Assembly (NCBI GenBank): GCA_030606165.1 | Contig: JAUWGZ010000002.1 | Coordinates: forward strand, 1-39,231 | Direction: 5' to 3' | DNA from: Dehalococcoidia bacterium | GTDB taxonomy: Bacteria; Chloroflexota; Dehalococcoidia; GIF9; AB-539-J10 | DNA length: 39,231 bases | Shown here: piece after piece, positions 16,531 to 37,495 of the stretch | How the letters are laid out: every line of letters begins with the position of its first letter | How positions within the stretch are numbered: the first letter of the stretch is position 1 | Program-made: the position numbers and the translations under genes | Notes under the pieces: generated by a model | Seen by the model: the letters and a program-made list of their open reading frames with translations, nothing else | The model's database searches: none | What the model was told of the DNA's origin: nothing

Positions 16531-17121
16531 ATGATATCAGCAATACTCCTAGCTGCCGGTGAATCAAATCGCATGGGTCAGCCAAAGCAACTGATGCCTT
16601 TTGGCCAGAGTACCATTTTGGAAACAACCATTGACAATCTTTTGAATTCAGCAGTAAGCGAGACTATCGTGGTGCTGGGATACAGAGATGAGGGGATACG
16701 AAAAACTATAGCCGGCAAACCGGTTAAGGTAGCAATAAATCCAGATTACCAGCAAGGGATGAGCGCCTCCATAATTGCTGGATTAAAATAAATTGATAAA
16801 AGAGCCAGGGCAGTGCTTATCGCCCTGGGTGACCAGCCTTTTGTTGACAGTCAGACCATCAATAGCTTAGTAGAAGCATTCATAGCTAATAAGAGAGGAA
16901 TTATTATCCCGGTCTATCAGGGCAGAAGGGGGAATCCCGTTATCTTCGCTATCGGATATAAGGGCGAACTCTTGAATCTAAAGGGAGACGTTGGTGGCAG
17001 GGAAATAGTCAAACGTCACCCTGATGACGTGCTTGAAGTGGCGGTCAACTGTGAAGGCGTCTTGCTTGACATTGATACCGCGGAAAATTATACTTCGATT
17101 ATATTTAATCCTGATAAATAA
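16531..17121 (+). pseudogene. MocA/MobA-like molybdenum cofactor nucleotidyltransferase interrupted by an in-frame TAA (16789-16791)
   Basis: ORFs 16531-16791 and 16813-17121 are in the same frame. Read through, the sequence is ...SIIAGLK*IDKRARAVLIALGDQPFV... The N-terminal motif is LLAAGESNRMGQPK and the motif after the stop is ALGDQP. The stop falls in a poorly conserved loop. Confidence 0.7.
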
Positions 17122-18381: not shown

Positions 18382-18891
18382 GTGCGCATCGACTAGAATT
18401 TAAGGATACCATCAAGAGCAAACATTCCAGCAAGTTTACGGCCCACTGCCCTGGCACCCCGCTTCAGCCTTTCTCATCCTTCAAATTCATTCTCCTGGTT
18501 TCGCCAGAATGAAGCACTACACATGTTTTGCTTCCCAACCTTGGTTATGTTAAGATGCGCGTTTGTAGCTTTCTTGGGTTGCTGAGGGGAGTAACCGATT
18601 ACTCAGGCAATGCTTTAAATCTTAAGTTGGGAGATAGCAATGCAAAAGATAAATAGAGTTGAAGGGCGGAAAAGGAAGGGAATCAGCCAAAGTGCAGCAA
18701 CCAAGAGCAGAAGCGCAGTTCAAGTGTTGGCGGAATAAGAGGGCTAAGATGAACGAGAAAAAGTCATAACCACCCCTAACCAAGAAAAGGTCTATGCGAC
18801 TTTTAAATTATTTATTTTGAATATTATATGTGCTATTATAGTAAACCTGTTATTGGTGTTATCTAAATATTATTAATTATCGGAGGGTGTG

Positions 18892-19731
18892 ATGCGGAAA
18901 GTAATCATTACATGTGCTCTTACGGGAGGCGTACAGAATAAGTCAGCAAACCCAAATTTACCTGAGCAGCCGGAAGAAATTGCGCAACAAGCTTACGAAT
19001 GTTTTAACGAAGGTTGTGCCATTGCCCATATTCATGCCCGTGACAAAGAAGGTAAACCTACCGGTGACTCGGAGGTGTTCAAGGAAATTCATAATGCCAT
19101 CCGTAGCAAATGCAACATGATATTGCAGGATAGTACTGGAGGCGGTCCAGGACTGACTTTTGAGCAGAGGTTAAGCTGCCTTGATGCGGCTCCCGAAATG
19201 GCATCGCTCAATTTAGGCTCAATGTTGCGGACTATTGGGAGCAGCGCAGGAACTGTCTGGACCAATCCTCGTTCCGAACTAGAGCGGTTTGCTCAGGAGA
19301 TGCTGAATCGGAATATTAAAGCAGAAATGGAGATTTACCATCATGGTATGCTCCGGGAAATGAATAATTTCATTTCCAAAGAGTTGGTTAAGAAGCCCTA
19401 TTACGTAAACTTTGTTATGGGTATGGCATACCAAGGAGCTGTGGATGCTACACCGGCTAACCTGATAAGCTTAATACAACTTCTACCACCGGATACGATA
19501 TTCAACTGTTGTGCTGTGGGTGCTCCACAGTTGCAGATAACGACGCTCTCGGTCCTTATGGGTGGCCAAGCTCGTATTGGTATGGAAGATAGCATCTACT
19601 TATCAAAAGGGGTATTAGCACAAAGTAATGCTCAACTGGTGAGCCGGAGTGTTCGTATTATCAGAGAATTGGGTTACGAAATTGCTTCGCCCGAAGAAGC
19701 TAGGAAGACGTTAGGTTTACCGAAAAGGTAA
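18892..19731 (+). CDS. BKACE family (beta-keto acid cleavage enzyme, DUF849); candidate triacetate acetoacetate-lyase
   Basis: MRKVIITCALTGG and IAHIHARD are hallmarks of the 3-keto-5-aminohexanoate cleavage enzyme family. GGAGGG RBS; ATG 18892 is preferred to GTG 18889. Confidence 0.85.
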   Translation: MRKVIITCALTGGVQNKSANPNLPEQPEEIAQQAYECFNEGCAIAHIHARDKEGKPTGDSEVFKEIHNAIRSKCNMILQDSTGGGPGLTFEQRLSCLDAAPEMASLNLGSMLRTIGSSAGTVWTNPRSELERFAQEMLNRNIKAEMEIYHHGMLREMNNFISKELVKKPYYVNFVMGMAYQGAVDATPANLISLIQLLPPDTIFNCCAVGAPQLQITTLSVLMGGQARIGMEDSIYLSKGVLAQSNAQLVSRSVRIIRELGYEIASPEEARKTLGLPKR

Positions 19732-19757
19732 CCAATAAATTGTTTTGGAGCGAGAAA

Positions 19758-20519
19758 ATGAAAAAAACGAAAATTTACGATCTATCTTTGCCGTGGGGTG
19801 TCGATACGCCACTATGGCCTTTCCCCGGGCCAAGACAGGACCTTGTTTTTTCCCGCGGTGAGTACCTGGGACGGTTCCATAAGCGGAGTGTAATTTATAC
19901 TGGTACGCTACACGCCGGGACACATATGGACGCTCCAATGCACGTATTGCATCCCAGCGAGGGCGGTATTATGTTGGATAAGATTCCCCTGGAGAACTGT
20001 TATGGCACTGGAATTATCGTTGATTTCCGTTATATGAAAAAATGGCACATTGTAACGGAAAAGGATTTAGAAGATGCTGAGCCGAAGATTCAGCGCGGTG
20101 ACTTCGTAGTATTCAATACGGGATGGCATAAATACTGGCGATGGGACAACTACGCTTACTATAACTATTTTCCGGGCCTCGGGCCGAAGGCAGCGGAGTG
20201 GCTGATAAAGAAAAAAATCAAAGGCGTAGCGGGTACCTGGGGTGCCACCGACAGTCCTCTATGGCATTATAGGCTTGCCGAGACTATGCCATGGCTGGAT
20301 AAAGAGTACCGCAGAGAGACAGGGAAAGACCCGGATAAGTTATTCCCGGAATACGAACCTTGTCACAGGCTGCTTATGCGTAACGGTATAGTTACTGTAG
20401 AAAACGCTGGCGGCGATATTGATCAGATTACTGGCAAGCGCTGTACTATCGCGGCTTTTCCCTTCCGCTGCGAAATGGCCGACGGCGGCATGGTGCGGCT
20501 AGTTGCTATTGTAGAGTAA
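19758..20519 (+). CDS. Cyclase-family metal-dependent hydrolase (kynurenine formamidase fold); candidate dihydrophloroglucinol cyclohydrolase
   Basis: LHAGTHMDAPMH matches the HxGTHxDxPxH motif of the putative-cyclase family. ATG 19758 (MKKTKIYDLSLPW) is preferred to TTG 19740. Confidence 0.82.
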   Translation: MKKTKIYDLSLPWGVDTPLWPFPGPRQDLVFSRGEYLGRFHKRSVIYTGTLHAGTHMDAPMHVLHPSEGGIMLDKIPLENCYGTGIIVDFRYMKKWHIVTEKDLEDAEPKIQRGDFVVFNTGWHKYWRWDNYAYYNYFPGLGPKAAEWLIKKKIKGVAGTWGATDSPLWHYRLAETMPWLDKEYRRETGKDPDKLFPEYEPCHRLLMRNGIVTVENAGGDIDQITGKRCTIAAFPFRCEMADGGMVRLVAIVE

Positions 20520-20564
20520 GATCCGGTCTCAATCGCCTTGTGGTAAATAAAGGAGGAGGTTCCG

Positions 20565-21323
20565 ATGTTTAGATTGGATGACAAAGTAGCTGTCGTTATT
20601 GGTGGGGCAGGGGGGCTTGGTGAAGCCTGTGCACTCGCTCTAGCACAGCAAGGAGCCAAGGTCGTAATAGCAAGCCGTACTTTGGAGAAATTGCAAGATA
20701 CAGCTAGAAAAATTCAATCCGTGGCCAACGCCGAAATTACGGCAATACAGGTAGATGTAATTAGTGAAAGTAGCACTGCTCATTTGGTAGAACAGATACT
20801 CCAGAAATTTCAAACTGTTGACATACTCGTAAATGCTCACGGCTTAAATGCCAAAATGCCCGCCATTGATATTGATTTCAACAAATGGGATGTATTATTT
20901 GCAACAAATGTAAAAGGTGTCATGGTTGCCTGCAAAAGTTTCGGCAAGGTAATGATTGAGAAAAAGAAAGGTAAGATTATTAATCTTTCTTCGGTGCGCG
21001 GTATTCGTGGTACTGACGGTGGTAACACCACCTATGGAGCTACGAAAGGTGCGGTGGATATGGTCACTCGTATGCTAGCGGCTGAATGGGCACCCTATAA
21101 TATTAATGTCAATGCTATCGGCGCCTCTGTAGTAATGACAGAAGCTTTAAAAAAAGCGTTAACACCAGAGCGCCTACAACTATTGCTTTCTAAAACGCTA
21201 TTTAAGAAATTTGCCACACCTCAGGATATTGCTGCAGCTTGTGTTTATCTTGCCTCCACTGAGGCTGATTATGTTACCGGACAAATCATGTACGTTGATG
21301 GCGGCCTTACCGCAATCGGTTAA
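20565..21323 (+). CDS. Short-chain dehydrogenase/reductase; candidate phloroglucinol reductase
   Basis: 252 aa. Cofactor motif VIGGAGGLGEA, catalytic S...YGATK and a strong AAAGGAGGAGG RBS. Confidence 0.88.
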   Translation: MFRLDDKVAVVIGGAGGLGEACALALAQQGAKVVIASRTLEKLQDTARKIQSVANAEITAIQVDVISESSTAHLVEQILQKFQTVDILVNAHGLNAKMPAIDIDFNKWDVLFATNVKGVMVACKSFGKVMIEKKKGKIINLSSVRGIRGTDGGNTTYGATKGAVDMVTRMLAAEWAPYNINVNAIGASVVMTEALKKALTPERLQLLLSKTLFKKFATPQDIAAACVYLASTEADYVTGQIMYVDGGLTAIG

Positions 21324-21367
21324 ATCGCCTGCAATAATTAGCAACAGTAAAAGATGGGGAGGTAAAA

Positions 21368-21700
21368 ATGAAAGTCGTTAGAAAAAACGAAGGTGTCGTA
21401 TACGAAGCCCCTCTACATTTCAATGTATGGAGTATCCGAAAGTTATCGGACAAGGATACTCAGAGACTCTCGGTTAGCTTATCTCACTTCCTACCTAACG
21501 GGCATGTTGATATGTCAGGCTCACCAAGTGAAAAGATGTATTATATTTTGGGTGGCAGTATGGTAGTGAAGAATAAGGCGGGAGAAGAGGCTACTCTTCA
21601 GGCTGGTGATATTGTATATTTCGCCAGTGGTGAAGAACGAGAGGGTCATATCGTTGGTAATGAAGTTTGTACTATCTTAGTGTGCATAGTAAAAAGTTAA
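21368..21700 (+). CDS. Cupin-domain protein
   Basis: 110 aa of single-barrel size, with a pattern ending ...GDIVYFASGEEREGHIVGNE. GGGGAGG RBS. Confidence 0.65.
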   Translation: MKVVRKNEGVVYEAPLHFNVWSIRKLSDKDTQRLSVSLSHFLPNGHVDMSGSPSEKMYYILGGSMVVKNKAGEEATLQAGDIVYFASGEEREGHIVGNEVCTILVCIVKS

Positions 21701-21704
21701 GGAT

Positions 21705-22664
21705 ATGATCGTGATTGAAGATATTCGTAAGATACTTGTAGTCGGTGCAGGCACGATGGGGCATGGGATTGCCCAATCATTCGCTCAAGAAGGCTATGAT
21801 GTCTCACTGTTTTCCCGTTCTGAGCAAACTCTTGACCGGGCTAAAGCATTGATCAAGTCAAGCCTGGATACTCTCGCTCAAGAAGGTATGATAGACCGTA
21901 AACAGATTCCAGCTATAACCGGATGCATCAAAATGACCCGGTCTCTAGAGGAAGGTGCCCGAGATGCTGACATAGCCTTCGAAACTGTCGTGGAAAATCG
22001 AGAATCGAAGATAGAAGTATTTAATCAATTGGACAAACTGTGTCCGTCTAAAACATTGCTAGCCAGTAATACAACCTCTTTAAATGTATTTGATTTTATC
22101 AAGACATCTCGTCCTGGTAATGTTCTTATTGCCCACTGGTATACGCCACCGCAAATTATACCGCTTGTTGATGTAGTTAAAGGTCCGGAAACCAGTGAAG
22201 ACAGTGTACAGGTAATGTTGGCTTTGCTTAAAAAGATAGGTAAAACTCCTCTCTACCTACGGAAATTCATCTCCGGCTATCTGATATCACGCTGGCAGAT
22301 TGCCAATTTACGTGATATTCTCTATTTGATTGATAATGACATTGTTACGCCAGAAGAATTAGATATGGCCGCTAAGGCGGGGTGGGCAATACGGATGATG
22401 GTTCTTGGACTAATACAGAGAATGGATTTTGGCGGCCTTGATTTATCTGTTAAAAGTCTGGATAATCCATACGTCCGCAGTCAGATGACACCGCTGGACT
22501 ACAAACCAGTAAAGGTATATGAGTTAGTTAAACAGGGACACCTAGGAATAAAGACAGGAAAAGGCTTCTATGACTACAAAGGTAAAAGTGAAGCAGAACT
22601 CTGTCAAGAACGGGACGTAAAACTTATTAAAATATTAAAAGCTTACAAAGAAATTGAGGGGTAA
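21705..22664 (+). CDS. 3-hydroxyacyl-CoA dehydrogenase family oxidoreductase; candidate 3-hydroxy-5-oxohexanoate dehydrogenase
   Basis: The Rossmann motif is ILVVGAGTMGHGIAQSFAQEG. N- and C-terminal HCDH domains are present (319 aa). Confidence 0.82.
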   Translation: MIVIEDIRKILVVGAGTMGHGIAQSFAQEGYDVSLFSRSEQTLDRAKALIKSSLDTLAQEGMIDRKQIPAITGCIKMTRSLEEGARDADIAFETVVENRESKIEVFNQLDKLCPSKTLLASNTTSLNVFDFIKTSRPGNVLIAHWYTPPQIIPLVDVVKGPETSEDSVQVMLALLKKIGKTPLYLRKFISGYLISRWQIANLRDILYLIDNDIVTPEELDMAAKAGWAIRMMVLGLIQRMDFGGLDLSVKSLDNPYVRSQMTPLDYKPVKVYELVKQGHLGIKTGKGFYDYKGKSEAELCQERDVKLIKILKAYKEIEG

Positions 22665-22752
22665 CCCGAGAAACTGGGATTGAATCTGGCGATATAGTAA
22701 GTTATAATCTGGAAACGTCAGGGAGAAGAAGGCGGTTGGATCAGTACAATCA

Positions 22753-24957
22753 ATGACCAAAGACAATAATGAACTTGATTTATTCTTTTACCCATCATCG
22801 GTGGCAATCGTAGGTGCTTCGGAAAAACTGAGTTCCTACGGTGCTAGGTATATTCAAGCCCTTCTCGACTTCGGATATAAAGGAAAAATTTACGCTGTTA
22901 ATCATACCGGCAATGAAGTCTTGGGATATAAAATATACCATAGTGTGCTAGATATCCCGGACAATGTTGATCTGGCAGCTATTTGTGTGGCAAATCATTT
23001 TGTCCCCCGAATTATACAGGATTGTGTGAACAAGAAAATTAAAGCAGCGATTGTATTAAGCGCTGGCTTTAGTGAGTCCGGTGGTGAAGGGCGTTTATTC
23101 GAAGAGGAGCTGGCAAAGATAGCCGAACAGGGTATTCGTATTATGGGGCCGAATTGCTTTGGTACATATTGCCCTAATGGCGGTATTACGATACTTCCCG
23201 GTGCTGGTCTTCCCAAACAGGGAGGGTGTACTGCTCTAATTGCACAAAGCGGTCAGCTTTCAGAGATGATAACAGCACGTTCTTTTGGTGAAGGTATCAG
23301 ATATTCAAAGGTCGCCAGTTACGGAAACGCCTGTAATATTAATGAAGCACATTTACTGGATTATCTGATTCAAGATGATGAAACAAAAATTATAATGTCT
23401 TACCTCGAGGGGGTAAGGGATGGACGCCGGTTTTTTGAAATAGCCCGTCGGAATGTCGACAAGAAACCCTTGTTGTTGTGGAAGGCAGGATTTACTAATG
23501 TTGGAGCTGCGGCAGCAAAATCCCACACTAATTCGCTGGCAGGATCCAGCATGGTCTGGGATGCTTTCTACCGCCAGACTCATGCTATTAAGATAAACAG
23601 TCTGGAAGAATTAGTAGATACTAATATTGGTTTCTCGTGTTTGCCGGCTGGTTGTGGAAGGCGGATTGCCCTTATAAGCGGAGGCGGTGCTGGTACGGTA
23701 ATTGGTGCCGATGCTGCTGAAAACGCCGGTTTAATCATGCCTCCTTTGACTCCCGACGTCGATAAGCAGTTACGTGCCATACTGCCACCAGTCGGCACTT
23801 CAATCAAAAATCCCCTCGATATCGGCTTTCCGCATCCATCATCAACAGTATTACAGTCAGTTTTGGAAACTCTAGCAGCCAGTGACCAGATTGATGTTGT
23901 GGTAATTCGCCGTATCTTCTTCTCTATCGCGGTAAGCAAAATATTTGCAGGGACAGCGGCACAGTCCGATGAAGAACAACAGGCACTTCTCGAAATACCG
24001 ATCAATATTAAGAAAAAGTACGGCAAACCGGTAATTATTATTTTGCCCGAAGAGCTGACTGGAGCCGATGCTATCAAACTGGAAGAGGAGCGGCGTACAA
24101 TTCGTGACTACTTCTTTAAGAATGGCATACCTGTTTATCCGACCGAAAACAGGGCTTTCACAGCTATAGCACATCTGGCAGATTTTAAAGATAACATGGA
24201 TAAACATTACACGGCTGAAGAAAGTATTGTTGAGAGTAAAACAACTACTTATGATACTTTCTCCAGGATAAGCAAAGCATCGGTTTCTCCCATATTAAAC
24301 GAAATTGAGTGCAAGGAAATTCTGAAAGAAGCTGGCGTTAATGTTGTAGAGACAAAACTGGCCAAAACGAGAGAGGAAGCTCTGGCTATCAGCAAGCAAC
24401 TTGGCTACCCGGTAGTGATGAAGATAATATCACCACAAATTACCCATAAATCAGATATCGGAGGCGTCAAACTGGGATTGAAAACCTCTCTACAAGTAGG
24501 CAAAGCTTATGACAGCATAATGAATGCAGTCCGGAATAAAGCTTCTGGAGCGACGATTGAAGGCGTTTCGATCCAGAAAATGGCTCCTTCAGGTGTCGAA
24601 CTGGTCATTGGCATGACTAAGGATTCCCAATTCGGTTCCATGTTGATGTTCGGTCTCGGTGGCATTTTCATTGAGGTATTAAAAGATGTTTCTTTCCGGA
24701 TCATACCATTGTCCAGAGAAGATGCCAGAGAGATGATTCGCGAGATAAAAGGTTTCCGTTTGCTGGAAGGATATAGAGGTCAGCCTCCAGTTAATATAAC
24801 CTATTTGGAAGAGCTATTACTCAAAGTATCACGATTTGTAACGGATTGCCCCCAAATTAAAGAGATAGATATTAATCCAATTATTGCTTATGCCGATGGT
24901 GCTGTGGCAGTTGATGCTCGAATTATTCTCGAACCGAATAACGTGATTTCCGGTTAG
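22753..24957 (+). CDS. ADP-forming acetyl/acyl-CoA synthetase, fused alpha-beta (CoA-binding, ligase-CoA and ATP-grasp domains)
   Basis: 734 aa. The N-terminus reads LFFYPSSVAIVGASEK and is followed by GPNCFG. The C-terminal ATP-grasp domain has GYPVVMKIISPQITHKSDIGGV. Confidence 0.85.
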   Translation: MTKDNNELDLFFYPSSVAIVGASEKLSSYGARYIQALLDFGYKGKIYAVNHTGNEVLGYKIYHSVLDIPDNVDLAAICVANHFVPRIIQDCVNKKIKAAIVLSAGFSESGGEGRLFEEELAKIAEQGIRIMGPNCFGTYCPNGGITILPGAGLPKQGGCTALIAQSGQLSEMITARSFGEGIRYSKVASYGNACNINEAHLLDYLIQDDETKIIMSYLEGVRDGRRFFEIARRNVDKKPLLLWKAGFTNVGAAAAKSHTNSLAGSSMVWDAFYRQTHAIKINSLEELVDTNIGFSCLPAGCGRRIALISGGGAGTVIGADAAENAGLIMPPLTPDVDKQLRAILPPVGTSIKNPLDIGFPHPSSTVLQSVLETLAASDQIDVVVIRRIFFSIAVSKIFAGTAAQSDEEQQALLEIPINIKKKYGKPVIIILPEELTGADAIKLEEERRTIRDYFFKNGIPVYPTENRAFTAIAHLADFKDNMDKHYTAEESIVESKTTTYDTFSRISKASVSPILNEIECKEILKEAGVNVVETKLAKTREEALAISKQLGYPVVMKIISPQITHKSDIGGVKLGLKTSLQVGKAYDSIMNAVRNKASGATIEGVSIQKMAPSGVELVIGMTKDSQFGSMLMFGLGGIFIEVLKDVSFRIIPLSREDAREMIREIKGFRLLEGYRGQPPVNITYLEELLLKVSRFVTDCPQIKEIDINPIIAYADGAVAVDARIILEPNNVISG

Positions 24958-25053
24958 TTTTGCTCTATAATATTATTTTAAAGTTTTACAAATAACTAGA
25001 AGGCTGATGATTTTAAGCAAATTGCCTTTTAAGAACGGTTTTAAACAAAGAGG

Positions 25054-25635
25054 ATGCCAAAACAAAATACTATCTGTTCTAATCCTGTCAAAAAGTATAT
25101 CGAGCAGGCCAAGTCCTTTCACGGTTATGCTGCACCAGGGATAATTATCGGGGGGTTTATGGTTGACCTTGCCTACCAGCATCTACCTGAAGGAGTCCTG
25201 CTCGATGCCATCAGTGAGACACAAGTCTGTCTACCGGATGCCTTGCAATTGCTGACTCACTGTACTGTAGGCAACGGCTGGCTTAAAGTTATCGATTTAG
25301 GCCGTTTTGCGTTGACTCTTTACGACCCGAATAACGGTAACGGTATCAGGGTCTATGTAAATCCGGCCAAACTTGAAAAATGGCCGGAAATAAAGAACTG
25401 GTTCTTTAAACTGGTACCCAAAAAAGAGCAGGATACACAACGATTAATGAAACAGATACAGGAAGCCGGGTCTGATATTTGTGATTATGAAAAGGTAAAA
25501 GTTAAACTCAATAAGGTGACTAAGAAGCACCACTCCAATCTTGGTATCTGCTCGCGCTGTAAAGAGTCATACCCGGTAGCGGACGGGGATGTATGCCTCG
25601 GCTGTCAAGGTAAAGCCCCTTATCTAAACAAATGA
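25054..25635 (+). CDS. FmdE-family protein with C-terminal 4-Cys zinc ribbon
   Basis: An FmdE-like N-domain (FHGYAAPGIIIGGFMVD...GNGW) plus CSRC...CLGC at the C-terminus. Confidence 0.7.
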   Translation: MPKQNTICSNPVKKYIEQAKSFHGYAAPGIIIGGFMVDLAYQHLPEGVLLDAISETQVCLPDALQLLTHCTVGNGWLKVIDLGRFALTLYDPNNGNGIRVYVNPAKLEKWPEIKNWFFKLVPKKEQDTQRLMKQIQEAGSDICDYEKVKVKLNKVTKKHHSNLGICSRCKESYPVADGDVCLGCQGKAPYLNK

Positions 25636-25675
25636 TTAAGAATAAGCCCGGATCTCATCACAAAAGGAGTGAACA

Positions 25676-28180
25676 ATGTCAGAGAAAGTATTTATTAACT
25701 GTACCGGCGGCGGACCGATTCGGGTACATGTGAAAAACGGCAAGATCACTCGTGTCCGGCCGTTAGTCTTTGATGAGAATGATGCTCCTTCCTGGACTAT
25801 AGAAGCTGGAGGGCAAAAATTCACCCCGCCTAGGAAGGCCTGTGTAGCCTCCTTTGCTCTTACCGAAAAGGAAAGAGTATATTCTAAGGACAGAATCTTA
25901 TATCCGTTAAAGCGTGTTGATTTCGATCAGAATGGCGAAAGACACCCGGAAAACAGAGGCAAATCGGGTTATGAGCGAATCAGTTGGGATGAAGCCATAA
26001 ATATCGTCTCCGGCGAGATGAAACGAATCAGAAGTGCTTACGGACCGGAGGCTATAGTATCCCGGGGTTCTTCTCATCACAACTGGGGTAATGTCGGTTA
26101 CCGGAGCAGTACCTGGGCACGGTTTTTCAACTTAATCGGTTTCACTGACATTTTAGATAATCCCGACAGCTGGGAAGGCTGGCATTGGGGAGCTCCCCAT
26201 GCTTACGGTTTTTTCTGGCGTCTGGGTAATCCCGAGCAATACGACCTGTTAGAAGACGCCCTGAAAAACACTGAAATGGTTATATATTGGAGCAACGACC
26301 CCGATTCCACCCACGGCATTTACGGCGGTAACGAATCAGCCCTATGGCGTATCTGGATGAGAGACCTGGGGATTAAACAGGTCTTTCTCGATCCCTACTG
26401 TAACTATACGGCGGCGATTCACAGTGAAAAATGGATTGCTTACCGGCCGGGTACGGAAACAGCTCTGGCGATGGCCATTGCCTATGTGTGGTTAACAGAA
26501 GATACCTATGACAAACAATATATCGAGACCCATTCTCTCGGATTCGATGAATTTAAAAGCTATATCCTGGGTAAAGAAGACGGCGTAGCCAAGACCCCGG
26601 AATGGGCTGCTGAAATTTGTGATGTACCCGCGCGTAATATCATTGCTTTAGCCAGAGAATGGGCATCCAAGAGGACAATGCTATCCAGCGGCACTAAAGG
26701 CGGCGAGGGCGGTGCCTGCCGGCAGGCTTACGCTACTGAATGGGCGAGAATGATGGTTTTCCTGGCAGCGATGCAGGGAATGGGTAAACCGGGGTCCAAT
26801 ATCTGGGGTACTACGCTGGGTCCTCCCTTTAACGCTACACTTGATTTTCCCGGTTATGCCCAGGGCGGCATCAACAGGTTAGCCAAAAAACCGGCGGTTA
26901 ATCCGGTGAAACAGCGTATTTACCGCTTACTGCTGCCCGAAGCTATTCTGAATCCCCCGATTAAATGGATGGGAGATGGTTTCTGCGGCAACTCGATTGA
27001 ACAACAGTTTAACAAATATGTATATCCCCTGCCCGGCTGTTCCGAAGTCAAAATGTTTTACCGCTACGGCGGCGCTTTCATTGCCACAATGACCGAGACT
27101 AACCGATGGGTCAGGATGTACCAGAGCCCTAAGTTAGAATTTGTGGTTAATCAGGACTGCTGGTGGTGCACCGAGACTAAATTTGCTGACATCATCCTAC
27201 CCGCCTGTACAAACCTGGAACGTAACGACATCAGCGAATGGGCCAGCGCTGGTGGGTATTCCGTACACGGAGCCGGTGCTTGTAATCACCGAGTTATCGT
27301 TTACCAGCAGAAATGTGTCGAGCCGGTCGGCGAATCAAAATCAGATTATCAGATTTTCTGCGAATTGGCGGAAAGGCTTGGAGTAAAAGAGGAGTTTACG
27401 GAGGGTAACACCGAGGAAGACTGGATCAAGATAATGTTCGATTCATCCGACCTTCCAAAGTATATCTCATTCGAAGAATTTAAGAAAAAAGGCTATTATA
27501 TCGTACCCCAGCTGGAAAATTATAAACCGACGCCCTCCCTGCGCTGGTTCTATGAAGGCCGGGAATGCGATACGCCGGACCTCGGTAATGCCAAGAGGAA
27601 TACCGAAAAAGGGAAAGAGCTGGGCACTTACTCCGGCAAACTCGAGTTTGTCTCGCAAAGCTTGTTGAAGCACACCCCGGATGATGACGAAAGACCGCCG
27701 CTGGTTCATTACATTCCGAGCTGGGAAGGGCATCAATCCGACCTGGCGAAGAAATATCCGCTGCAGCTTATTTCGCCTCATCCACGCTATTCCTTCCACA
27801 CCCAACATGATTCTCACGTGCCGTGGCTGTCTGATATACCAGGCCACCGGATCTGGAAAGACGGGTATGATTATCAGGTAGTACGTATACATCCGACTGA
27901 TGCGGCCACCAGAGGTATTCAAAATAACGATATCGTGAAGCTATATAACGATAGAGGTGCCGTGTTGTTAATCGCCCGGATTACAGAAAGAATCAGGCCA
28001 GGCGTAGTGCATTCGTGCGAAGGCTCCGCTAAATACGACCCGCTCGAACCGGGTAAAGCCGGCAGTATCGACCGGGGGGGTTGCATCAATGTGCTCACAC
28101 CTTCCCGGATGCTCTCAAAGAACGTACCGGGAATGGCACCTAACTCATGTCTAGTCGAAGTATCCAAGTGGGAAGTTTAA
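25676..28180 (+). CDS. Pyrogallol-phloroglucinol transhydroxylase-like molybdopterin (bis-MGD) oxidoreductase, large subunit, copy 1
   Basis: 834 aa with no N-terminal Fe-S Cys motif. SSHHNWGNVGYR, DNPDSWEGWHWG, RLGNPEQYDLLED, ADIILPACTN and DRGGCINVLTP match my recollection of the Pelobacter acidigallici large subunit nearly residue for residue. Confidence 0.88.
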   Translation: MSEKVFINCTGGGPIRVHVKNGKITRVRPLVFDENDAPSWTIEAGGQKFTPPRKACVASFALTEKERVYSKDRILYPLKRVDFDQNGERHPENRGKSGYERISWDEAINIVSGEMKRIRSAYGPEAIVSRGSSHHNWGNVGYRSSTWARFFNLIGFTDILDNPDSWEGWHWGAPHAYGFFWRLGNPEQYDLLEDALKNTEMVIYWSNDPDSTHGIYGGNESALWRIWMRDLGIKQVFLDPYCNYTAAIHSEKWIAYRPGTETALAMAIAYVWLTEDTYDKQYIETHSLGFDEFKSYILGKEDGVAKTPEWAAEICDVPARNIIALAREWASKRTMLSSGTKGGEGGACRQAYATEWARMMVFLAAMQGMGKPGSNIWGTTLGPPFNATLDFPGYAQGGINRLAKKPAVNPVKQRIYRLLLPEAILNPPIKWMGDGFCGNSIEQQFNKYVYPLPGCSEVKMFYRYGGAFIATMTETNRWVRMYQSPKLEFVVNQDCWWCTETKFADIILPACTNLERNDISEWASAGGYSVHGAGACNHRVIVYQQKCVEPVGESKSDYQIFCELAERLGVKEEFTEGNTEEDWIKIMFDSSDLPKYISFEEFKKKGYYIVPQLENYKPTPSLRWFYEGRECDTPDLGNAKRNTEKGKELGTYSGKLEFVSQSLLKHTPDDDERPPLVHYIPSWEGHQSDLAKKYPLQLISPHPRYSFHTQHDSHVPWLSDIPGHRIWKDGYDYQVVRIHPTDAATRGIQNNDIVKLYNDRGAVLLIARITERIRPGVVHSCEGSAKYDPLEPGKAGSIDRGGCINVLTPSRMLSKNVPGMAPNSCLVEVSKWEV

Positions 28181-28184
28181 GCAA

Positions 28185-29021
28185 ATGACAAGATACGGAA
28201 TGGTTATCGACATTACCCGGTGTAACGGGTGTTATAACTGCTTCATCGCCTGCCGTGACGAGTATTGCGGCAATGACTATCCTCCGTATTCGGCGGCGCA
28301 ACCCGATAAAGGCTCTTTCTGGATAAAAATTATCGAGAAAGAGCGGGGGAAATACCCCCATCCGGTAGGAGTAGCTTACACTCCAATACTCTGCCAGCAT
28401 TGTGATGAAGCTAATTGTGTTAAAGCCGCTAAAAACGGGGAGATTTACCGCCGCGAAGACGGCATAGTCATTATCGACCCTGAGAAATCAAAAGGGAAGA
28501 AAGAATTAATGTCCGCCTGCCCTTACCGGGTCATCTACTGGAACGACGAAAAAAATATACCCCAAAAATGCACCTTCTGTGCCCATTTGCTTGATGCCGG
28601 CTGGAAAGAACCCCGGTGTGTCGAAGCCTGCCCCACGGCCGCTTTAAAGTTCGGCGACTTGGACGATCCGAACAGTGAAGTCGCCAAACTCGTTGCTGCG
28701 GGCAAGGTCGAAATACTGCATCCCGAATACAATATGAAAGAAAAGGTAAGCTATATCGGTTTACCGAAGCGGTTTATCGCCGGCACGGTAGTCTTCGGCG
28801 ATACGGATGAATGTGCGGATAAGGTCACCGTAACCATCAGTGACGGACAGGAAAAGGAAACGTTAAAGACCAATAATTATGGTGATTTTGAGTTAGACGG
28901 GCTGCCATCCAATAAAGAATATACCGTTAGAATCAGCTATACCGGTTACAAACCGCAAACATTTAAAGTCTTCACCAGAGACGATGTATGTATGGGCGAT
29001 ATATTTTTGACCCGTAAATAG
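28185..29021 (+). CDS. Transhydroxylase-like small subunit, copy 1 (3x[4Fe-4S] ferredoxin domain plus C-terminal beta-sandwich)
   Basis: 278 aa. The Cys motifs are CNGCYNCFIAC, CQHCDEANC, CPYRVI and CTFCAHLLDAGWKEPRCVEACP. The C-terminal region is carboxypeptidase-regulatory-like (TVTISDGQ...YTVRISYTGYKPQTF). Confidence 0.88.
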   Translation: MTRYGMVIDITRCNGCYNCFIACRDEYCGNDYPPYSAAQPDKGSFWIKIIEKERGKYPHPVGVAYTPILCQHCDEANCVKAAKNGEIYRREDGIVIIDPEKSKGKKELMSACPYRVIYWNDEKNIPQKCTFCAHLLDAGWKEPRCVEACPTAALKFGDLDDPNSEVAKLVAAGKVEILHPEYNMKEKVSYIGLPKRFIAGTVVFGDTDECADKVTVTISDGQEKETLKTNNYGDFELDGLPSNKEYTVRISYTGYKPQTFKVFTRDDVCMGDIFLTRK

Positions 29022-29107
29022 CTATGGTCATTATAAATAAGCACACCAGTAATTCTGTTTACTCACGGAAGCGATATTTCATTGCTTTCAAATAAAAGGA
29101 ATTAGTA

Positions 29108-31702
29108 TTGGCAAAAAAAGTGAGGCAGGAAAAGGACGGCGGCAAAACTATCATCAAAGGACTGGGGTTTTGTTCTATCGCCGCCGACAGTAACACCGTT
29201 CAAATAGAGATTAAGGACGGTAAGATTGTCCGCATCCGGCCTCTTCATTACGACTGGAAATATAAGAATCTCAAACCCTGGAAAATAGAAGCCCGGGGTA
29301 AAACTTTCCAACCCCAGATGAAATCGCTCATCCCCCCTTACAGCCTCGGTTATAAAAATCGGGTTTTTTCACCCAACCGGGTGCCCTATCCAATGAAAAG
29401 GGTGGATTGGGATCCACAGGGGGAAAGGAATCCGCAAAACCGGGGTACCAGTAAATATGTCCGGATTAGCTGGGAAGAAGCCTTAGATATCATTGTCAGC
29501 GAAATCAAACGGATCAGGCAGCAGTATGGCATGGAAGCCATTCTCTCCCAGTCGGACGGACATGGTGAAACGATGGCGATAAATGCGGCCCACGGCTGCC
29601 ACCGCAAGCTCCTGCGGTTATTAGGCGGTTATACGCTGCAAACCCGGAATACGGACAGCTGGGAAGGCTGGTACTGGGGTGCCAAACATGTCTGGGGTTG
29701 CGAGAATCTTGGTCAGATGACTCCAGTCACTAACGTTATCTCTGATGTATCTAAAAACACGGATGCCATCTTTTTCTGGGGCTGCGACCCGGAGACGACT
29801 CCCTGGGGCTTCGACGGCCAGTTAGCCAGTCGGTTATGTTACTGGTTTACGGAAATCGGGATTAAGTCTATCTACGTCAGCCCGGATTTGAATTACGGGG
29901 CGGCTGTCCATAGCGATAAATGGATTCCGATACTGCCCAATACGGATGCCGCATTATACCTCGCCATCGCTTACGTCTGGATGACGGAAGGTAGCTACGA
30001 TAAAGAATATGTAAAAACACATACCAAGGGTTTCGAAAAATTCCAGGACTACGTTCTCGGTAAAGAAGATGGCGTTCCCAAAACACCTAAATGGGCGTCC
30101 CCTATAACCGGCATACCGTCTTACACTATCAAAGCACTAGCCATATACTGGAGCAAGCATAGGGTCAGTTTTGCGATAGGTAATGGAGGGCCCGGTATCC
30201 GGGGACCTTACGCTACGGAACCGGCCAGGCTCCAAATTTTGCTGCTAGCGATGCAAGGCGTTGGCAAACCCGGCGTCCACCAGTTTAAGATGATCGAATG
30301 GGGTCTCTATAATAAGAAAACGAATATTCCTCTCCCCCATCCGAAATACGTACCGGATTTATCAGATGTCCAGCGAGGCTGGCGTTATACGGATACACCC
30401 CGTCAGTTCATCCCTAAAAATAAGATTCATGACGCCATTCTGCGGCCCCCGTTAAAATGGTATGGCACTACTCTTTCCCGCGACTCTACCGACCAGCAAT
30501 TTATTCCTTATCAATATCCTTTACCTGATAGCACAGAGATACACATGATATGGACGGACAGTCCTTCTTGGATGAGTTGCTGGACCGATACCAACGATTT
30601 CGTCCGGGCGCTAAGAAGTCCGAAGATAGAATTTGTCTTAGCCCAGCACCCATGGTTTGAAAATGATTGTCTGTTGGCAGACATAGTATTGCCATCGATT
30701 ACCAAGATGGAGTGCGATGATATTGGTGTCGAAACTATGAGCGGACAGTTTTATATGGCATATCCCGAGCCTAAGGCCATCGAACCGCGGGGAGAAGCAA
30801 AGAGCAATTACCAGATTGTGTGTGATATCGCCGCCAGATTTAATCTGCTCGAAGAATATACCGATGGTAAAAGCCCTGAGGAATGGATTAGAGCCGGTTA
30901 TGAGGCCTCTGGTGTCGCGAAATATATTAGCTGGGAAGAGTTCAATAAGAAAGGCTATTATATCGTTCCCAACGATGAACATTGGCAGGAACAGAAAGCC
31001 GGTTTGGCCGCTTTTTACGAGGATCCGGGGAATAATCCTTTAGAAACTCCCAGCGGTAAAATCGAGTTCTATTCTGAGAGACTGGCCGTTAATTTCCCCG
31101 CTGATAACGAGCGGCCTCCGGTCCCGCACTGGATACCTTCCGGGGCTACTCATCAGGAGAGTCTGCATTCCGATAGAGCAAAGGAATATCCTTTACTGGT
31201 GGAATCCAATCATCCCCGCTGGCGGGTTCATTCCCAGCATGACGATATGACCTGGACGCGGGAAATCCATACCTGTAAAGTCAGAGGCCAGGATGGCTAT
31301 TTATATGAGCCGGTCTGGCTTAATCCGATAGTTGCCGGAGCACGGCATATTAAAGATGGCGATGTGGTTAAAATATACAATGAACGCGGGGCCCTGCTGG
31401 CCGGTGCCTGGGTTACCGAAAGAATCCGGCCGGGTGTCGTTTATATCGACCACGGCAGCCGGTGGGACCCCATCATACCCGGCGAACTGGATAGAGGCGG
31501 GGCAATTAATACCATCACGCCCCATAATACTACCTCTAAAAACGCCAGCGGCATGGTTTGCAGCGGCTTTTTAGTGGAGGTGGCCGGCGTCGATCTGGAA
31601 GCGTTGAAAAAAAAGTATCCGGAAGCTTTTAACCGTCCCTATGACAACATTGCCGGGCTTGTAGTAGAACGCGTTTTACACGGAGAAAAAAGCCGTGGGT
31701 AA
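29108..31702 (+). CDS. Transhydroxylase-like molybdopterin oxidoreductase large subunit, divergent copy 2
   Basis: 864 aa, collinear with copy 1 (NTDSWEGWYWG, ADIVLPSITK, DRGGAINTITP) but with diverged active-site-proximal segments. TTG start with AAGGA 8 nt upstream; GTG 29120 is an alternative. Confidence 0.85.
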   Translation: MAKKVRQEKDGGKTIIKGLGFCSIAADSNTVQIEIKDGKIVRIRPLHYDWKYKNLKPWKIEARGKTFQPQMKSLIPPYSLGYKNRVFSPNRVPYPMKRVDWDPQGERNPQNRGTSKYVRISWEEALDIIVSEIKRIRQQYGMEAILSQSDGHGETMAINAAHGCHRKLLRLLGGYTLQTRNTDSWEGWYWGAKHVWGCENLGQMTPVTNVISDVSKNTDAIFFWGCDPETTPWGFDGQLASRLCYWFTEIGIKSIYVSPDLNYGAAVHSDKWIPILPNTDAALYLAIAYVWMTEGSYDKEYVKTHTKGFEKFQDYVLGKEDGVPKTPKWASPITGIPSYTIKALAIYWSKHRVSFAIGNGGPGIRGPYATEPARLQILLLAMQGVGKPGVHQFKMIEWGLYNKKTNIPLPHPKYVPDLSDVQRGWRYTDTPRQFIPKNKIHDAILRPPLKWYGTTLSRDSTDQQFIPYQYPLPDSTEIHMIWTDSPSWMSCWTDTNDFVRALRSPKIEFVLAQHPWFENDCLLADIVLPSITKMECDDIGVETMSGQFYMAYPEPKAIEPRGEAKSNYQIVCDIAARFNLLEEYTDGKSPEEWIRAGYEASGVAKYISWEEFNKKGYYIVPNDEHWQEQKAGLAAFYEDPGNNPLETPSGKIEFYSERLAVNFPADNERPPVPHWIPSGATHQESLHSDRAKEYPLLVESNHPRWRVHSQHDDMTWTREIHTCKVRGQDGYLYEPVWLNPIVAGARHIKDGDVVKIYNERGALLAGAWVTERIRPGVVYIDHGSRWDPIIPGELDRGGAINTITPHNTTSKNASGMVCSGFLVEVAGVDLEALKKKYPEAFNRPYDNIAGLVVERVLHGEKSRG

Positions 31703-32525
31703 AGTACTGATTATCGATATTACGAAGTGCAACGGCTGTCACAACTGCCAGATTGCCTGTAAAGATGAACATTGCGGTAATGACTGGAGTCCCATTGCGA
31801 AGCCCCAGCCACTCAGCGGCCAGTTCTGGATCGGGGTCGTCGATGTAGTACGAGGTACCGTACCCAAGGTTAAAGTAGCTTATAACCATATTATCTGCCA
31901 GCATTGTGATGATGCCCCCTGCATTAAAGCCTGTCCCAATAAAGCTATTTATAAGAGACCGGACGGCATTGTCATTATCGACCCCTTAAAATGCAAAGGC
32001 GCCGGGGACTGTATAAAAGAGTGCCCTTACGAGGGTGTTATCTTCTTTAATAAAGAACTTAATATTTCCCAGAAATGTACTTTTTGCGCTCATCTGATTG
32101 ACAAGGGCTGGCAAGAACCCCGGTGTGTCGATGCCTGTCCTACCGGAGCTCTTACGTTCGGCGAGGGAGCAGAATTGCGGGACTTAATCAGTAAGGCTGA
32201 AGTACTCAAACCCGAGATAGGTGTTAAACCCAGGGTTTACTATATTGGCATTCCTAAAAGGTTCATCGGCGGCACTATTTATAACCCCGAACTCGATGAG
32301 GTGGTAATTGGAGCTGAGGTAAATCTTCAAAATGAAGATGACGGAATAAGTATTTCTTGTAAGGCCGATGATTTCGGGGACTTCTGGGTAGATGGTTTAT
32401 CACCCGGGAAATATCTGGTGACTATTAAGAATAGCGGCTATATTCATAAAGAACTGAAAGCGGATATTACCGAAAAAGATATCAATCTAGGCGATATCGC
32501 TTTAGTAAGAAATAAATCTGTTTAG
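31695..32525 (+). CDS. Transhydroxylase-like small subunit, copy 2
   Basis: 276 aa with the same Cys motifs (CNGCHNCQIAC, CQHCDDAPC, CPYEGV, CTFCAHLIDKGWQEPRCVDACP) and the same C-terminal beta-sandwich. The GTG start overlaps the alpha2 stop by 8 nt. Confidence 0.85.
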   Translation: MGKVLIIDITKCNGCHNCQIACKDEHCGNDWSPIAKPQPLSGQFWIGVVDVVRGTVPKVKVAYNHIICQHCDDAPCIKACPNKAIYKRPDGIVIIDPLKCKGAGDCIKECPYEGVIFFNKELNISQKCTFCAHLIDKGWQEPRCVDACPTGALTFGEGAELRDLISKAEVLKPEIGVKPRVYYIGIPKRFIGGTIYNPELDEVVIGAEVNLQNEDDGISISCKADDFGDFWVDGLSPGKYLVTIKNSGYIHKELKADITEKDINLGDIALVRNKSV

Positions 32526-32539
32526 TTACGGGGAATCAT

Positions 32540-32842
32540 TTGAGAGCAATTGTAAATTTAATGTCAAAACGGGCAATAACGCTTAGCGGTTGGCGGGCCA
32601 AAGCTATTCAAATAAACGGTAAAAACGAGGCATCGTTAAGCGAAATATTGCAAGCCGCTACGCTTAAAGACGGCCGCAGTATGCTTGACTTGATTACGGA
32701 AAAAGACCGCCTGAGGGATGACTGGTCTCTTTATGTGGATGGCTTTTCACTACCGGGTTCCTCCAGCATCAAGAAAACCGTAAAAGATAACGTGCAGATT
32801 CATGTTCTAGATCGTCCATCCATCAAAGTTAAGGATTTCTAA
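32540..32842 (+). CDS. Small hypothetical protein (93-100 aa), possibly beta-grasp (ThiS/MoaD-like) but without a C-terminal GG
   Basis: It begins 14 nt after beta2. The pattern ...LYVDGFSL...VKDNVQIHVLDRP is reminiscent of MoaD/ThiS-like folds. The start is ambiguous (TTG 32540 or ATG 32561). Confidence 0.4.
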   Translation: MRAIVNLMSKRAITLSGWRAKAIQINGKNEASLSEILQAATLKDGRSMLDLITEKDRLRDDWSLYVDGFSLPGSSSIKKTVKDNVQIHVLDRPSIKVKDF

Positions 32843-33102: not shown

Positions 33103-33339
33103 TGCTTAACGAAAGATAGAACTCCTACACGATGGCCTATTCAGGTCTGAAATCCGTAAGTGCAATATTGAATTAGACATGATTGTTCCGCCTATATATA
33201 ATATGTTCAGGTTTGATATGGCAAGTAGATTCTTGGTCATGCGATCCCAGCAGCAAACGATAGAAGTAACTGACGGGAGAAACCGTATTTATTGTAGATG
33301 CCCGCAAAGGATAATAAAGTACTCTTAAAGGAGACGATC

Positions 33340-34638: not shown

Positions 34639-34685
34639 CAATAAAATCGTCGTAAAGACAACAGCCGGTCACGGTTTACGGAGCA

Positions 34686-35831: not shown

Positions 35832-35879
35832 ATTCGCCTCAAAATTCTCCGCTATGCAGCATTTTAATACGGGCGCCAT

Positions 35880-37460: not shown

Positions 37461-37495
37461 GGCTAAAAATTATTGAAGAAAGGGACTTAAAAGAT

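Follow-up and report, generated by a model that had tools for sequence, protein, structure and literature searches.

A twelve-gene Dehalococcoidales locus with a proposed route from pyrogallol via phloroglucinol to C2 and C4 products and a divergent second molybdoenzyme

Twelve genes on the plus strand of a 39,231-nucleotide stretch of DNA (contig JAUWGZ010000002.1 of the Dehalococcoidia assembly GCA_030606165.1; the whole stretch is hereafter called the window) are interpreted here as a catabolic operon of an uncultured Dehalococcoidales bacterium, which would ferment pyrogallol (1,2,3-trihydroxybenzene) stemming from gallate or tannins, together with related fragments of polyphenols, via phloroglucinol. 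We assign this interpretation a probability of roughly 0.72. The genes encode a beta-keto acid cleavage enzyme (BKACE), a cyclase-family metal hydrolase, a short-chain dehydrogenase/reductase (SDR), a small cupin, a protein of the 3-hydroxyacyl-CoA-dehydrogenase family (HCDH), a fused ADP-forming acyl-CoA synthetase, an FmdE-like protein, two molybdoenzymes (alpha1/beta1 and alpha2/beta2) related to the transhydroxylase AthL/BthL of Pelobacter acidigallici, and a protein of 100 aa designated orf100 (Table 1). The chemistry that leads from pyrogallol over phloroglucinol, dihydrophloroglucinol, 3-hydroxy-5-oxohexanoate and triacetate to C2 and C4 compounds has been established for decades by the physiology of P. 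acidigallici and Eubacterium oxidoreducens, and the transhydroxylase genes have reportedly been known since 2004.

In the proposed pathway, alpha1/beta1, a predicted cytoplasmic molybdoenzyme with a bis-molybdopterin guanine dinucleotide cofactor and a three-cluster Fe-S subunit, would convert pyrogallol to phloroglucinol by hydroxyl transfer, the SDR would convert phloroglucinol to dihydrophloroglucinol, and the cyclase-family hydrolase would open the ring to yield 3-hydroxy-5-oxohexanoate. The HCDH-family enzyme, devoid of the CoA contacts of its relatives, would oxidize this free acid to triacetate, the BKACE protein would turn triacetate and acetyl-CoA into acetoacetate and acetoacetyl-CoA, and the synthetase would most likely convert the resulting acetyl-CoA to acetate with formation of ATP. 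The FmdE-like protein probably aids the Mo enzyme, the cupin may be a conserved accessory at the transhydroxylase/reductase step, and alpha2/beta2/orf100 would most likely supply the pathway with a different phenolic substrate or with the tetrahydroxybenzene co-substrate. We infer every substrate in this scheme as well as the direction of the synthetase. The initial annotation of the locus had already suggested a conversion of trihydroxybenzenes via phloroglucinol to acetoacetate and acetoacetyl-CoA; the overall route is retained as a sound reading, although the cleavage proteins are only 30–41% identical to the characterized enzymes.

Judged by its sequence, alpha1/beta1 is a transhydroxylase-type enzyme, and its earlier likening to the P. 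acidigallici protein agrees with domain set, scores and active-site residues. The pair shares with AthL/BthL (PDB 4V4C/4V4D/4V4E) the AhtL-like first domain of the large subunit and the C-terminal beta-barrel of the small subunit. For the comparison of residues, the P. acidigallici chain was rebuilt from the PDB alignment and 96 homologues from the loci surveyed below were aligned. The Mo ligand Ser175 together with His144, Asp174, Tyr404, Arg153, Tyr152 and Tyr560 reportedly makes up the AthL active site (Messerschmidt 2004), and the rebuilt chain carries the expected residue at each of these positions and at Trp176. Alpha1 retains all eight residues checked, i.e., these seven and Trp176, and so does nearly the whole alpha1 clade, in which position 153 is Arg or Lys. 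The first 80 aa of alpha1 contain neither a twin-arginine motif nor a Cys cluster motif, i.e., neither a twin-arginine translocation (Tat) signal nor an FS0 motif, and a Tat signal is missing in AthL as well. The 12 motif cysteines of beta1, a number shared with BthL, are consistent with three [4Fe-4S] clusters. The pair differs from AthL/BthL in that alpha1 is only about 54% identical to AthL and is placed in a sister clade.

The second line of evidence is the group of cleavage genes. The enzyme-family set of SDR, cyclase, HCDH and BKACE, which the initial annotation had named for Clostridium scatologenes, is indeed the one reported for the phloroglucinol reductase (PGR), dihydrophloroglucinol cyclohydrolase (DPGC), 3-hydroxy-5-oxohexanoate dehydrogenase (TfD) and triacetate acetoacetate-lyase (TAL) of this organism, together with their diagnostic residues (Zhou et al. 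2023, PMC10470551). The C. scatologenes proteins (prefix Cs) served as references: CsDPGC and CsTfD were machine-read from alignment figures of that paper (Figs. S4A and S5A, respectively), and CsPGR and CsTAL are represented by its mass-spectrometry peptides, so that the references are partial and affected by optical character recognition (OCR) and all identities to them are approximate. The BKACE protein is about 41% identical to CsTAL over these peptides, among which the CsTAL peptide TIITVAPTGAWPK aligns. Its Val15 aligns with Glu14 of Kce, the residue that binds the 5-amino group in Kce and that is replaced by Trp, Trp16, in CsTAL (PMC10470551). Kce of lysine fermentation was rejected as an assignment for this protein, given the Glu14-to-Val exchange, the missing aminomutase context and a score below the NCBIfam cut-off for Kce (285 of 382 bits); kinship with Kce had been named at the outset as a finding that would speak against the proposed role, and it is countered by the Val at the Glu14 position.

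The cyclase aligns over the full length of CsDPGC (31% identity, 102 bits) and has kept the motifs W-P-[Y/F], HxGTHxDAPxH, EPCH and VEN.GGD, which include the metal ligands, among them the His of EPCH and the Glu of VEN. In comparison with the OCR-read CsDPGC, the substrate-recognition residue Trp20 is kept and Tyr22 is replaced by Phe (motif LWPF), and a CsDPGC segment of about 30–45 aa is gapped in the cyclase, which comprises 253 aa versus 312 aa. An assignment as isatin hydrolase or kynurenine formamidase, the latter likewise raised beforehand as a possible refutation, was checked and rejected: the match is partial in length with 23% identity and 34 bits, and the one to DPGC is much stronger than that to isatin hydrolase. 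The HCDH protein has kept the catalytic His, and the CoA-contacting residues Lys56 and Asn221 are exchanged to Gly and Ala, respectively; a 3-aa insertion lies at the site at which Fig. S5A of PMC10470551 also shows an insertion in CsTfD. It scores 113 bits with CsTfD (30% identity) versus 147 bits with dehydrogenases of the butyryl-CoA pathway. The SDR is regarded as phloroglucinol reductase from context only, its gene adjoining transhydroxylase, cupin or cyclase genes in many loci. Its best solved relative is gluconate 5-dehydrogenase, and none of the 44 best solved SDR relatives in the PDB is a chain named phloroglucinol reductase.

Taken as a set, the four cleavage proteins represent a divergent "short-cyclase" version of the C. 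scatologenes cluster. Both share four enzyme families side by side, the DPGC metal ligands and Trp motif, a BKACE protein without the Kce Glu14 and an HCDH protein without the CoA contacts Lys56 and Asn221. They differ in sequence (30–41% identity), in the short cyclase, in HCDH positions 117 and 188 (Thr and Ser here) and in the SDR, which is not demonstrably PGR-like; furthermore, a cupin is added here, Mo enzymes and an ADP-forming synthetase replace the thiolase and acetate/butyrate kinase context, and transporter and regulator are missing from the unit. The supplement of PMC10470551 already lists cyclase homologues of 253–269 aa from Dehalococcoidia and Chloroflexi, in a survey that relied on co-location with PGR, TfD and TAL homologues.

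The third line of evidence is the recurrence of the gene set in other genomes. The window proteins were compared with 80 transhydroxylase loci from reference genomes (cited below by their L numbers), with neighbours considered within 10 kb. At least one cleavage gene lies near the transhydroxylase in 25 of the 80 loci, at least two in 15 and all four in 4; other partners are alpha2-type genes (13 loci), cupin genes (12) and genes similar to acetyl-CoA synthetase (ACS; 8). A protein identical to alpha1 was found in two Logan metagenome contigs only (the locus is held by the assemblies of runs SRR14876847 and SRR14876848), and the scan of reference genomes returned a Dehalococcoidales metagenome-assembled genome (MAG), L003, with 100% identity and the relatives L004 with 97% and L005 with 91%, the last of which is devoid of cupin, synthetase and alpha2/beta2. 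As for two other lineages, a Desulfobacteraceae MAG (L065) shares nine of the twelve genes, i.e., alpha1, beta1, BKACE (81%), cyclase, SDR, HCDH, alpha2 (74%), beta2 and orf100, and a Gram-negative organism (L083) shares ten in a different order (GntR, alpha2, beta2, orf100-like, GntR, BKACE, cyclase, SDR, HCDH, alpha1, beta1, FmdE, MFS). The cultured Neomoorella sulfitireducens SLA38 (L053) carries cupin, HCDH, BKACE and SDR ahead of alpha1/beta1. The gene set recurs in Desulfobacterota, Thermoleophilia, SAR324 and cultured Neomoorella, and the window operon is built in modular fashion from parts that are repeatedly found together. The Neomoorella locus (32-22285) holds two transhydroxylase pairs; one of them clusters with that of P. 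acidigallici at 59% identity, although its residue 153 is Trp. A third, distant Mo subunit and two cyclases in tandem are encoded there as well; the organism is a thermophile that is tractable for tests of the pathway.

Large subunits of the alpha1 type also occur alone. In 33 of the 80 loci (L013, L019, L020, L030, L041 and others) no beta subunit lies within 10 kb even at an E-value of 1e-3. Many of these lone subunits stem from Dehalococcoidia MAGs with 70–72% identity, and those that were aligned retain all checked active-site residues; the one in L020 is surrounded by housekeeping genes and a transporter gene of the major facilitator superfamily (MFS). Furthermore, the MAG of L003 encodes a third AthL-like gene on another contig (L042; 71% identity to alpha1), in line with the several copies per genome that had been reported for Dehalococcoidia before.

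The synthetase is a fused alpha-beta chain that has kept both catalytic His motifs, KSHTNSLAG and ITHKSDIGG. It shares domain content, chain fusion and both His with the nucleoside diphosphate (NDP)-forming synthetases, i.e., the archaeal ACD enzymes and the thaumarchaeal ligases PDB 9Y43 and 8WZU, and differs from them in scoring below every NCBIfam equivalog cut-off (536 of 1200 bits). The earlier proposal that ATP is gained through this enzyme is backed by the ACD domains and both His but not in its direction, as the solved relatives work in both directions and include enzymes of the ligase direction. A gain of ATP is plausible. Making ATP from acetyl-CoA would be in keeping with how Dehalococcoidia fermenters are seen in the literature and with the CoA-transferase genes located downstream, which could activate acetoacetate. 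According to our stoichiometry, either direction nets 2 ATP per ring. The downstream region (33298-38275) encodes an acetyl-CoA hydrolase/transferase-family protein, a divergent acyl-CoA dehydrogenase and a two-subunit CoA transferase, and the same genes are found in L003; 455 nt lie between it and the operon, and a promoter-like site (11/12) is located in this gap at 33174-33202. These genes may handle acetoacetate and C4 units of the pathway.

The second molybdoenzyme, alpha2/beta2, had been taken for a second transhydroxylase paralogue, a view that we no longer favour in the light of four missing pocket residues, deleted pocket loops and three additional beta cysteines; it is probably a related enzyme with another substrate. 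In the alpha2 clade His144, Asp174, Ser175 and Trp176 are conserved in 12 of 12 sequences, and according to the alignment the clade is devoid of the pyrogallol-binding residues Tyr152, Arg153, Tyr404 and Tyr560. In alpha2 itself, which is 37% identical to AthL, positions 152 and 153 are both Ala, three residues are deleted at 354, a 10-residue deletion removes Tyr560, and the region 395-440 around Tyr404 is rebuilt to an extent that it cannot be aligned. Alpha2-type proteins form a separate clade at the deepest split of the neighbour-joining tree. The clade is large, since alpha2 matches at least 120 clusters in the database with ≥61% identity; its 120 top matches bear generic pipeline labels and no specific functional name. 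Beta2 has 15 motif cysteines versus 12 in beta1 and BthL. The additional Cys80, Cys100 and Cys106 are present in 11 of 11 beta2-clade proteins, and in 54 other aligned beta subunits the same three columns are occupied by other residues, except for a Cys at the first column in L061. With these cysteines beta2 regains the greater part of the site that holds the fourth cluster in ordinary ferredoxin subunits with four clusters, and such an additional Fe-S cluster is therefore predicted for it.

The gene orf100, which follows beta2, is a real conserved gene: homologues directly follow beta2 in L065 (20991-21299), L083 (13410-13703) and L085 (17927-18205), and Trp18, Arg19, Gln86, Ile87 and His88 are invariant in the family. 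A beta-grasp fold is predicted for the protein, the top 20 Foldseek matches in the PDB all being MoaD, ThiS, SAMP or Urm1 proteins (TM score 0.48–0.65, with weak E-values); inspection of the sequence revealed neither the C-terminal Gly-Gly of sulfur carriers nor any cysteine. In a Desulfatiglandales genome (L085, 10001-18205) and a Spirochaetes MAG (L084, 10001-17586) the alpha2-type gene adjoins a further AthL-like gene (50–52% identity to alpha1), which replaces the cleavage genes, and in the former it also adjoins a gene for an Old-Yellow-Enzyme-like flavoprotein, showing that the alpha2 module is not invariably tied to phloroglucinol genes. We consider it possible, though less likely than not, that alpha2/beta2/orf100 forms an unrecognized three-component molybdoenzyme, conserved beside phloroglucinol-pathway genes in several phyla, that might hydroxylate or dehydroxylate a phenol in a net redox reaction; a redox reaction is suggested because the catalytic core is kept, the substrate pocket is rebuilt and a fourth Fe-S cluster is predicted. 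Candidate reactions are the formation of the co-substrate 1,2,3,5-tetrahydroxybenzene and a conversion by which hydroxyhydroquinone, or a different fragment of polyphenols, is made accessible to the pathway. No genes are known to have been assigned to either reaction. The module and its consistent association with the pathway have no precedent in the literature examined.

Two of the smaller genes appear to be accessories. In L005 the FmdE-like gene is likewise a neighbour of alpha1/beta1, as is its homologue of 55% identity in L083. In the 12 loci with a cupin homologue, mainly from Desulfobacterota and SAR324, a cupin-SDR pair mostly follows directly after beta1. The cupin was matched to NF050094, an NCBIfam model built on Rv1717 of Mycobacterium tuberculosis, which is annotated as beta-galactosidase, and because the cupin is constantly paired with the SDR beside transhydroxylase genes, a role of the Rv1717 family in phloroglucinol metabolism is suggested instead. 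Rv1714–Rv1718 may encode an SDR, an HCDH protein, a cyclase, a cupin and a BKACE protein; the Rv1717 paper is silent on the neighbouring genes.

Direct observations are the order and the families of the genes, the patterns of residues and the recurring synteny. The list of open reading frames (ORFs) places the twelve ORFs at 18889-32842, and refinement of the starts by public gene calls on identical contigs and visible Shine-Dalgarno sequences gave the coordinates of Table 1. The intergenic gaps measure 26, 45, 44, 10, 88, 96, 40, 4, 86, -8 and 14 nt in order, in agreement with the gaps of about 100 nt or less and the single 8-nt overlap noted before. Pfam reproduced every family that had been read from motifs, i.e., BKACE, Cyclase, adh_short, Cupin_2 and 3HCDH_N+3HCDH in the cleavage part, followed by CoA_binding+Succ_CoA_lig+ATP-grasp_5, FmdE with zinc finger and, twice, AhtL-like_1st+Molybdopterin+Molydop_binding and Fer4_11+CarboxypepD_reg. 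The AT-rich spacer of about 500 bp that was described ahead of the genes matches in size (510 bp), and clear AT-richness is confined to its final 120 bp, the GC content of the entire spacer being 41.6% versus 46.2% for the window. From about 18707 onwards the window is homologous to L004 (97% identity), and the left border of the conserved unit is placed there. At gathering thresholds no Rfam family, including molybdenum cofactor (Moco) and other riboswitches, was found in the leader, and the whole window returned a tRNA-Ser alone.

Table 1. Leader and genes of the proposed operon, with refined coordinates in the window.
Feature	Coordinates	Strand	Supporting matches
Upstream leader/promoter region, conserved	18707..18891	+	L004 homology start ~18707; last 120 bp 28% GC; GGAGGG Shine-Dalgarno 5 nt before ATG
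BKACE-family beta-keto acid cleavage enzyme; proposed triacetate acetoacetate-lyase (TAL-like)	18892..19731	+	Pfam BKACE 304 bits; Val15 at Kce Glu14
Cyclase-family metal hydrolase; proposed dihydrophloroglucinol cyclohydrolase, short DPGC type	19758..20519	+	Pfam Cyclase; 31% identity to CsDPGC
Classical SDR; proposed NADPH-dependent phloroglucinol reductase, by context only	20565..21323	+	Pfam adh_short_C2; GGAGGLG (Gly-rich NADP(H) motif), YGATK (YxxxK)
Small cupin, recurrent SDR partner	21368..21700	+	Cupin_2; NF050094 50.7 bits vs cut-off 175
3-Hydroxyacyl-CoA-dehydrogenase-family protein; proposed free-acid 3-hydroxy-5-oxohexanoate dehydrogenase (TfD-like)	21711..22664	+	3HCDH_N+3HCDH; 30% identity to CsTfD
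Fused alpha-beta NDP-forming acyl-CoA synthetase (ACD type)	22753..24957	+	CoA_binding, Succ_CoA_lig, Ligase_CoA_2, ATP-grasp_5
FmdE-like protein with treble-clef zinc finger; candidate Mo-enzyme maturation/accessory factor	25054..25635	+	Pfam FmdE + zf-Tbcl_FmdE
alpha1, AthL-type molybdopterin large subunit; proposed pyrogallol-phloroglucinol transhydroxylase	25676..28180	+	PDB 4v4c_A 959 bits, ~54% identity
beta1, BthL-type Fe-S subunit, C-terminal beta-barrel domain	28185..29021	+	PDB 4v4c_B 213 bits; Fer4_11+CarboxypepD_reg; 12 motif Cys
alpha2, divergent AthL-like large subunit, uncharacterized clade	29108..31702	+	PDB 4v4c_A 491 bits, 37% identity to P. acidigallici enzyme
beta2, Fe-S subunit, extra conserved Cys at 80, 100, 106	31695..32525	+	PDB 4v4c_B 169 bits
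orf100, small beta-grasp protein (100 aa)	32540..32842	+	no Pfam match; 11 homologues; AlphaFold2 pLDDT 91

Several observations weigh against the proposed route. The identity of the cleavage proteins to characterized enzymes is low (30–41%), the BKACE protein misses the cut-off of NF053538, the model for 3,5-dioxohexanoate:acetyl-CoA transferase (223 of 430 bits), the HCDH protein has Thr for Ser117 and Ser for Asn188, i.e., it deviates at two of three residues called essential for TfD, both of them stereo-recognition residues conserved in CsTfD, and the SDR is about 30% identical to CsPGR over peptides that cover 59% of the latter, which does not exceed generic SDR similarity. In the neighbour-joining tree AthL of P. 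acidigallici falls into a third clade of four members, sister to the 78-member alpha1 clade. Moreover, the best solved relatives of the synthetase include enzymes of the ligase direction, L005 with its 91% identity has no synthetase gene, and protein family scans of the window found no thiolase, gallate decarboxylase, transporter or regulator. The complete phloroglucinol cleavage module claimed in the initial annotation is thus upheld at the level of families but not as close kinship. The low identities, the contextual assignment of the SDR, the deviating HCDH residues, the BKACE score and the presence of a cupin, which is missing from the clostridial cluster, would also suit a set of enzymes that act on another cyclic or linear beta-dicarbonyl compound, in which case the adjacency of the molybdoenzymes would point to a different shared pathway. 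We consider this improbable, since the product of an alpha1/beta1-type enzyme is phloroglucinol and cleavage genes follow such enzymes in many phyla, since the DPGC-specific motifs are kept and the Kce Glu14 is lost, and since the 2023 survey lists short cyclases from Dehalococcoidia and Chloroflexi. It is possible, at less than an even chance, that the phloroglucinol cleavage module is used as proposed but that another hydroxylated benzene, such as hydroxyhydroquinone, a resorcinol-type compound or a tetrahydroxybenzene, enters the pathway, with alpha2/beta2/orf100 as redox-active entry hydroxylase or dehydroxylase and alpha1/beta1 performing a later shuffle of hydroxyl groups. The retained Mo-Ser/His/Asp core of the alpha2 clade with its remodelled pocket loops and lost pyrogallol-binding residues agrees with this, as do the additional beta2 cysteines, which suggest a fourth cluster and therefore electron exchange with a partner, and the company of the module with cleavage genes in three lineages. 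In Pelobacter massiliensis the path from hydroxyhydroquinone to phloroglucinol takes several distinct, sequential transhydroxylations, and RhLS of Azoarcus anaerobius, a resorcinol hydroxylase, is homologous to transhydroxylase; these are family enzymes or activities that work on other hydroxybenzenes, the type of role proposed for alpha2/beta2, and as a likeness by description they serve as a lead only. Against such an entry stand the lack of any characterized or named protein in the alpha2 clade, including all 120 best database matches, the lack of a candidate electron carrier in the operon, orf100 being free of cysteine, and the complete pyrogallol site of alpha1, by which a use of pyrogallol is still expected.

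Within the pyrogallol route via phloroglucinol, two further points can be read differently. The synthetase might work as a ligase that spends ATP to activate acetoacetate, 3-hydroxy-5-oxohexanoate or triacetate to the CoA ester. Its best single solved relatives, the ADP-forming 3-hydroxypropionate-CoA ligase (400 bits) and the 4-hydroxybutyrate-CoA ligase (380 bits), and its scores below all equivalog cut-offs, including that of acetate-CoA ligase, would be in line with such a role; free acetoacetate formed by the lyase requires activation, and ACS-like genes directly follow the cyclase gene in the Desulfobacterota loci L044, L051 and L055 and lie nearby in L066 and L075. However, these Desulfobacterota proteins are only 31–34% identical to the synthetase, the CoA-transferase genes downstream (33298-34638 and 36366-38275) could activate acetoacetate, the alpha and beta subunits of Korarchaeum acetyl-CoA synthetase together reach a similar score (228+223 bits), ATP synthesis by ADP-forming ACS has been predicted for fermenting Dehalococcoidia, and the net ATP yield is equal in both directions; we judge the ligase direction less likely than not. 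The twelve genes are taken as a single transcript from their spacing and conserved synteny, which are the grounds that remain since the scan for promoters and terminators was uninformative: promoter-like and terminator-like counts do not exceed the expectation from shuffled sequences, and the scan gives no support to the single transcript or to any other transcript structure. Two or three transcription units, i.e., cleavage genes, synthetase, and FmdE with both Mo enzymes, could be envisaged, as the three largest gaps (88, 96 and 86 nt) coincide with the module borders, a 10/12 promoter-like site lies at 22680-22708 between the HCDH and synthetase genes, and the modules are separable, L005 being without synthetase, cupin and alpha2/beta2 and the order of modules varying among lineages. 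Yet a pattern scan found terminator-like hairpins in none of the intergenic gaps of the cluster, the promoter-like counts do not rise above shuffles, and all genes are co-directional and retain the same order in L003 and L004, and we judge a split of the operon less likely than not.

Parts of this picture have been described before. For the Dehalococcoidia genomes RBG-2 and RBG-1351, Hug et al. (2013, PMC3971608) reported two operons with transhydroxylase genes as well as an ADP-forming ACS-I that would yield ATP according to their prediction, and three AthL-like copies were reported for the marine cell DEH-C11 (Wasmund et al. 2016, PMC4959651). These genomes share with the window the class of the organism, multiple AthL-like copies and a proposed route from pyrogallol to acetate with ATP from ADP-forming ACS; both papers predate the identification of the cleavage genes, and their accessible parts describe neither the joined unit of transhydroxylase, cleavage genes and synthetase nor the alpha2 clade. 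The initial annotation knew of no described locus that joins these parts; the arrangement is nevertheless not singular, as the layout recurs across phyla and transhydroxylase operons together with ADP-forming ACS have been known from Dehalococcoidia since 2013 (PMC3971608). A paper on the fused locus of transhydroxylase, cleavage genes and synthetase was not found in the literature collection searched; the fused unit is common in genomic data although undescribed in that literature.

The remainder of the window is occupied by housekeeping genes, encoding EF-G, valyl-tRNA synthetase (ValRS), CoaBC, GreA and electron transfer flavoprotein (ETF). The tRNA-Ser(GCT) gene (16186-16277) lies between the GreA-like gene and an interrupted gene for a MobA/MocA-like nucleotidyltransferase (NTP_transf_3; 16531-17121), in which an in-frame TAA at 16789-16791 separates GLK from IDKRA and both halves match Pfam in register. 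The interruption could reflect a pseudogene, a sequencing error or a readthrough site. The MobA-like gene was rejected as a component of the system, being interrupted by the stop codon and not syntenic with the operon in L004.

Tannins and flavonoids rank among the largest plant-carbon pools in anoxic soil, peat and sediment, and their degradation without oxygen converges on phloroglucinol. The locus would unite the whole route from trihydroxybenzenes to C4 and C2 compounds with a likely ATP-conserving step in a widespread uncultured lineage of Dehalococcoidales, and the recurrence of its parts supports an annotation of the carriers in Desulfobacterota, Thermoleophilia, SAR324 and Neomoorella as polyphenol fermenters. 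Metagenome pipelines now score pgthAB and PGR together, and the combination of transhydroxylase, short cyclase, cupin, SDR and BKACE would make a better marker set. The more useful lead may be alpha2/beta2/orf100, as it represents a large unnamed clade that is recognizable by the loss of Tyr152, Arg153, Tyr404 and Tyr560 and by three additional cysteines in the beta subunit, which makes its function directly testable.

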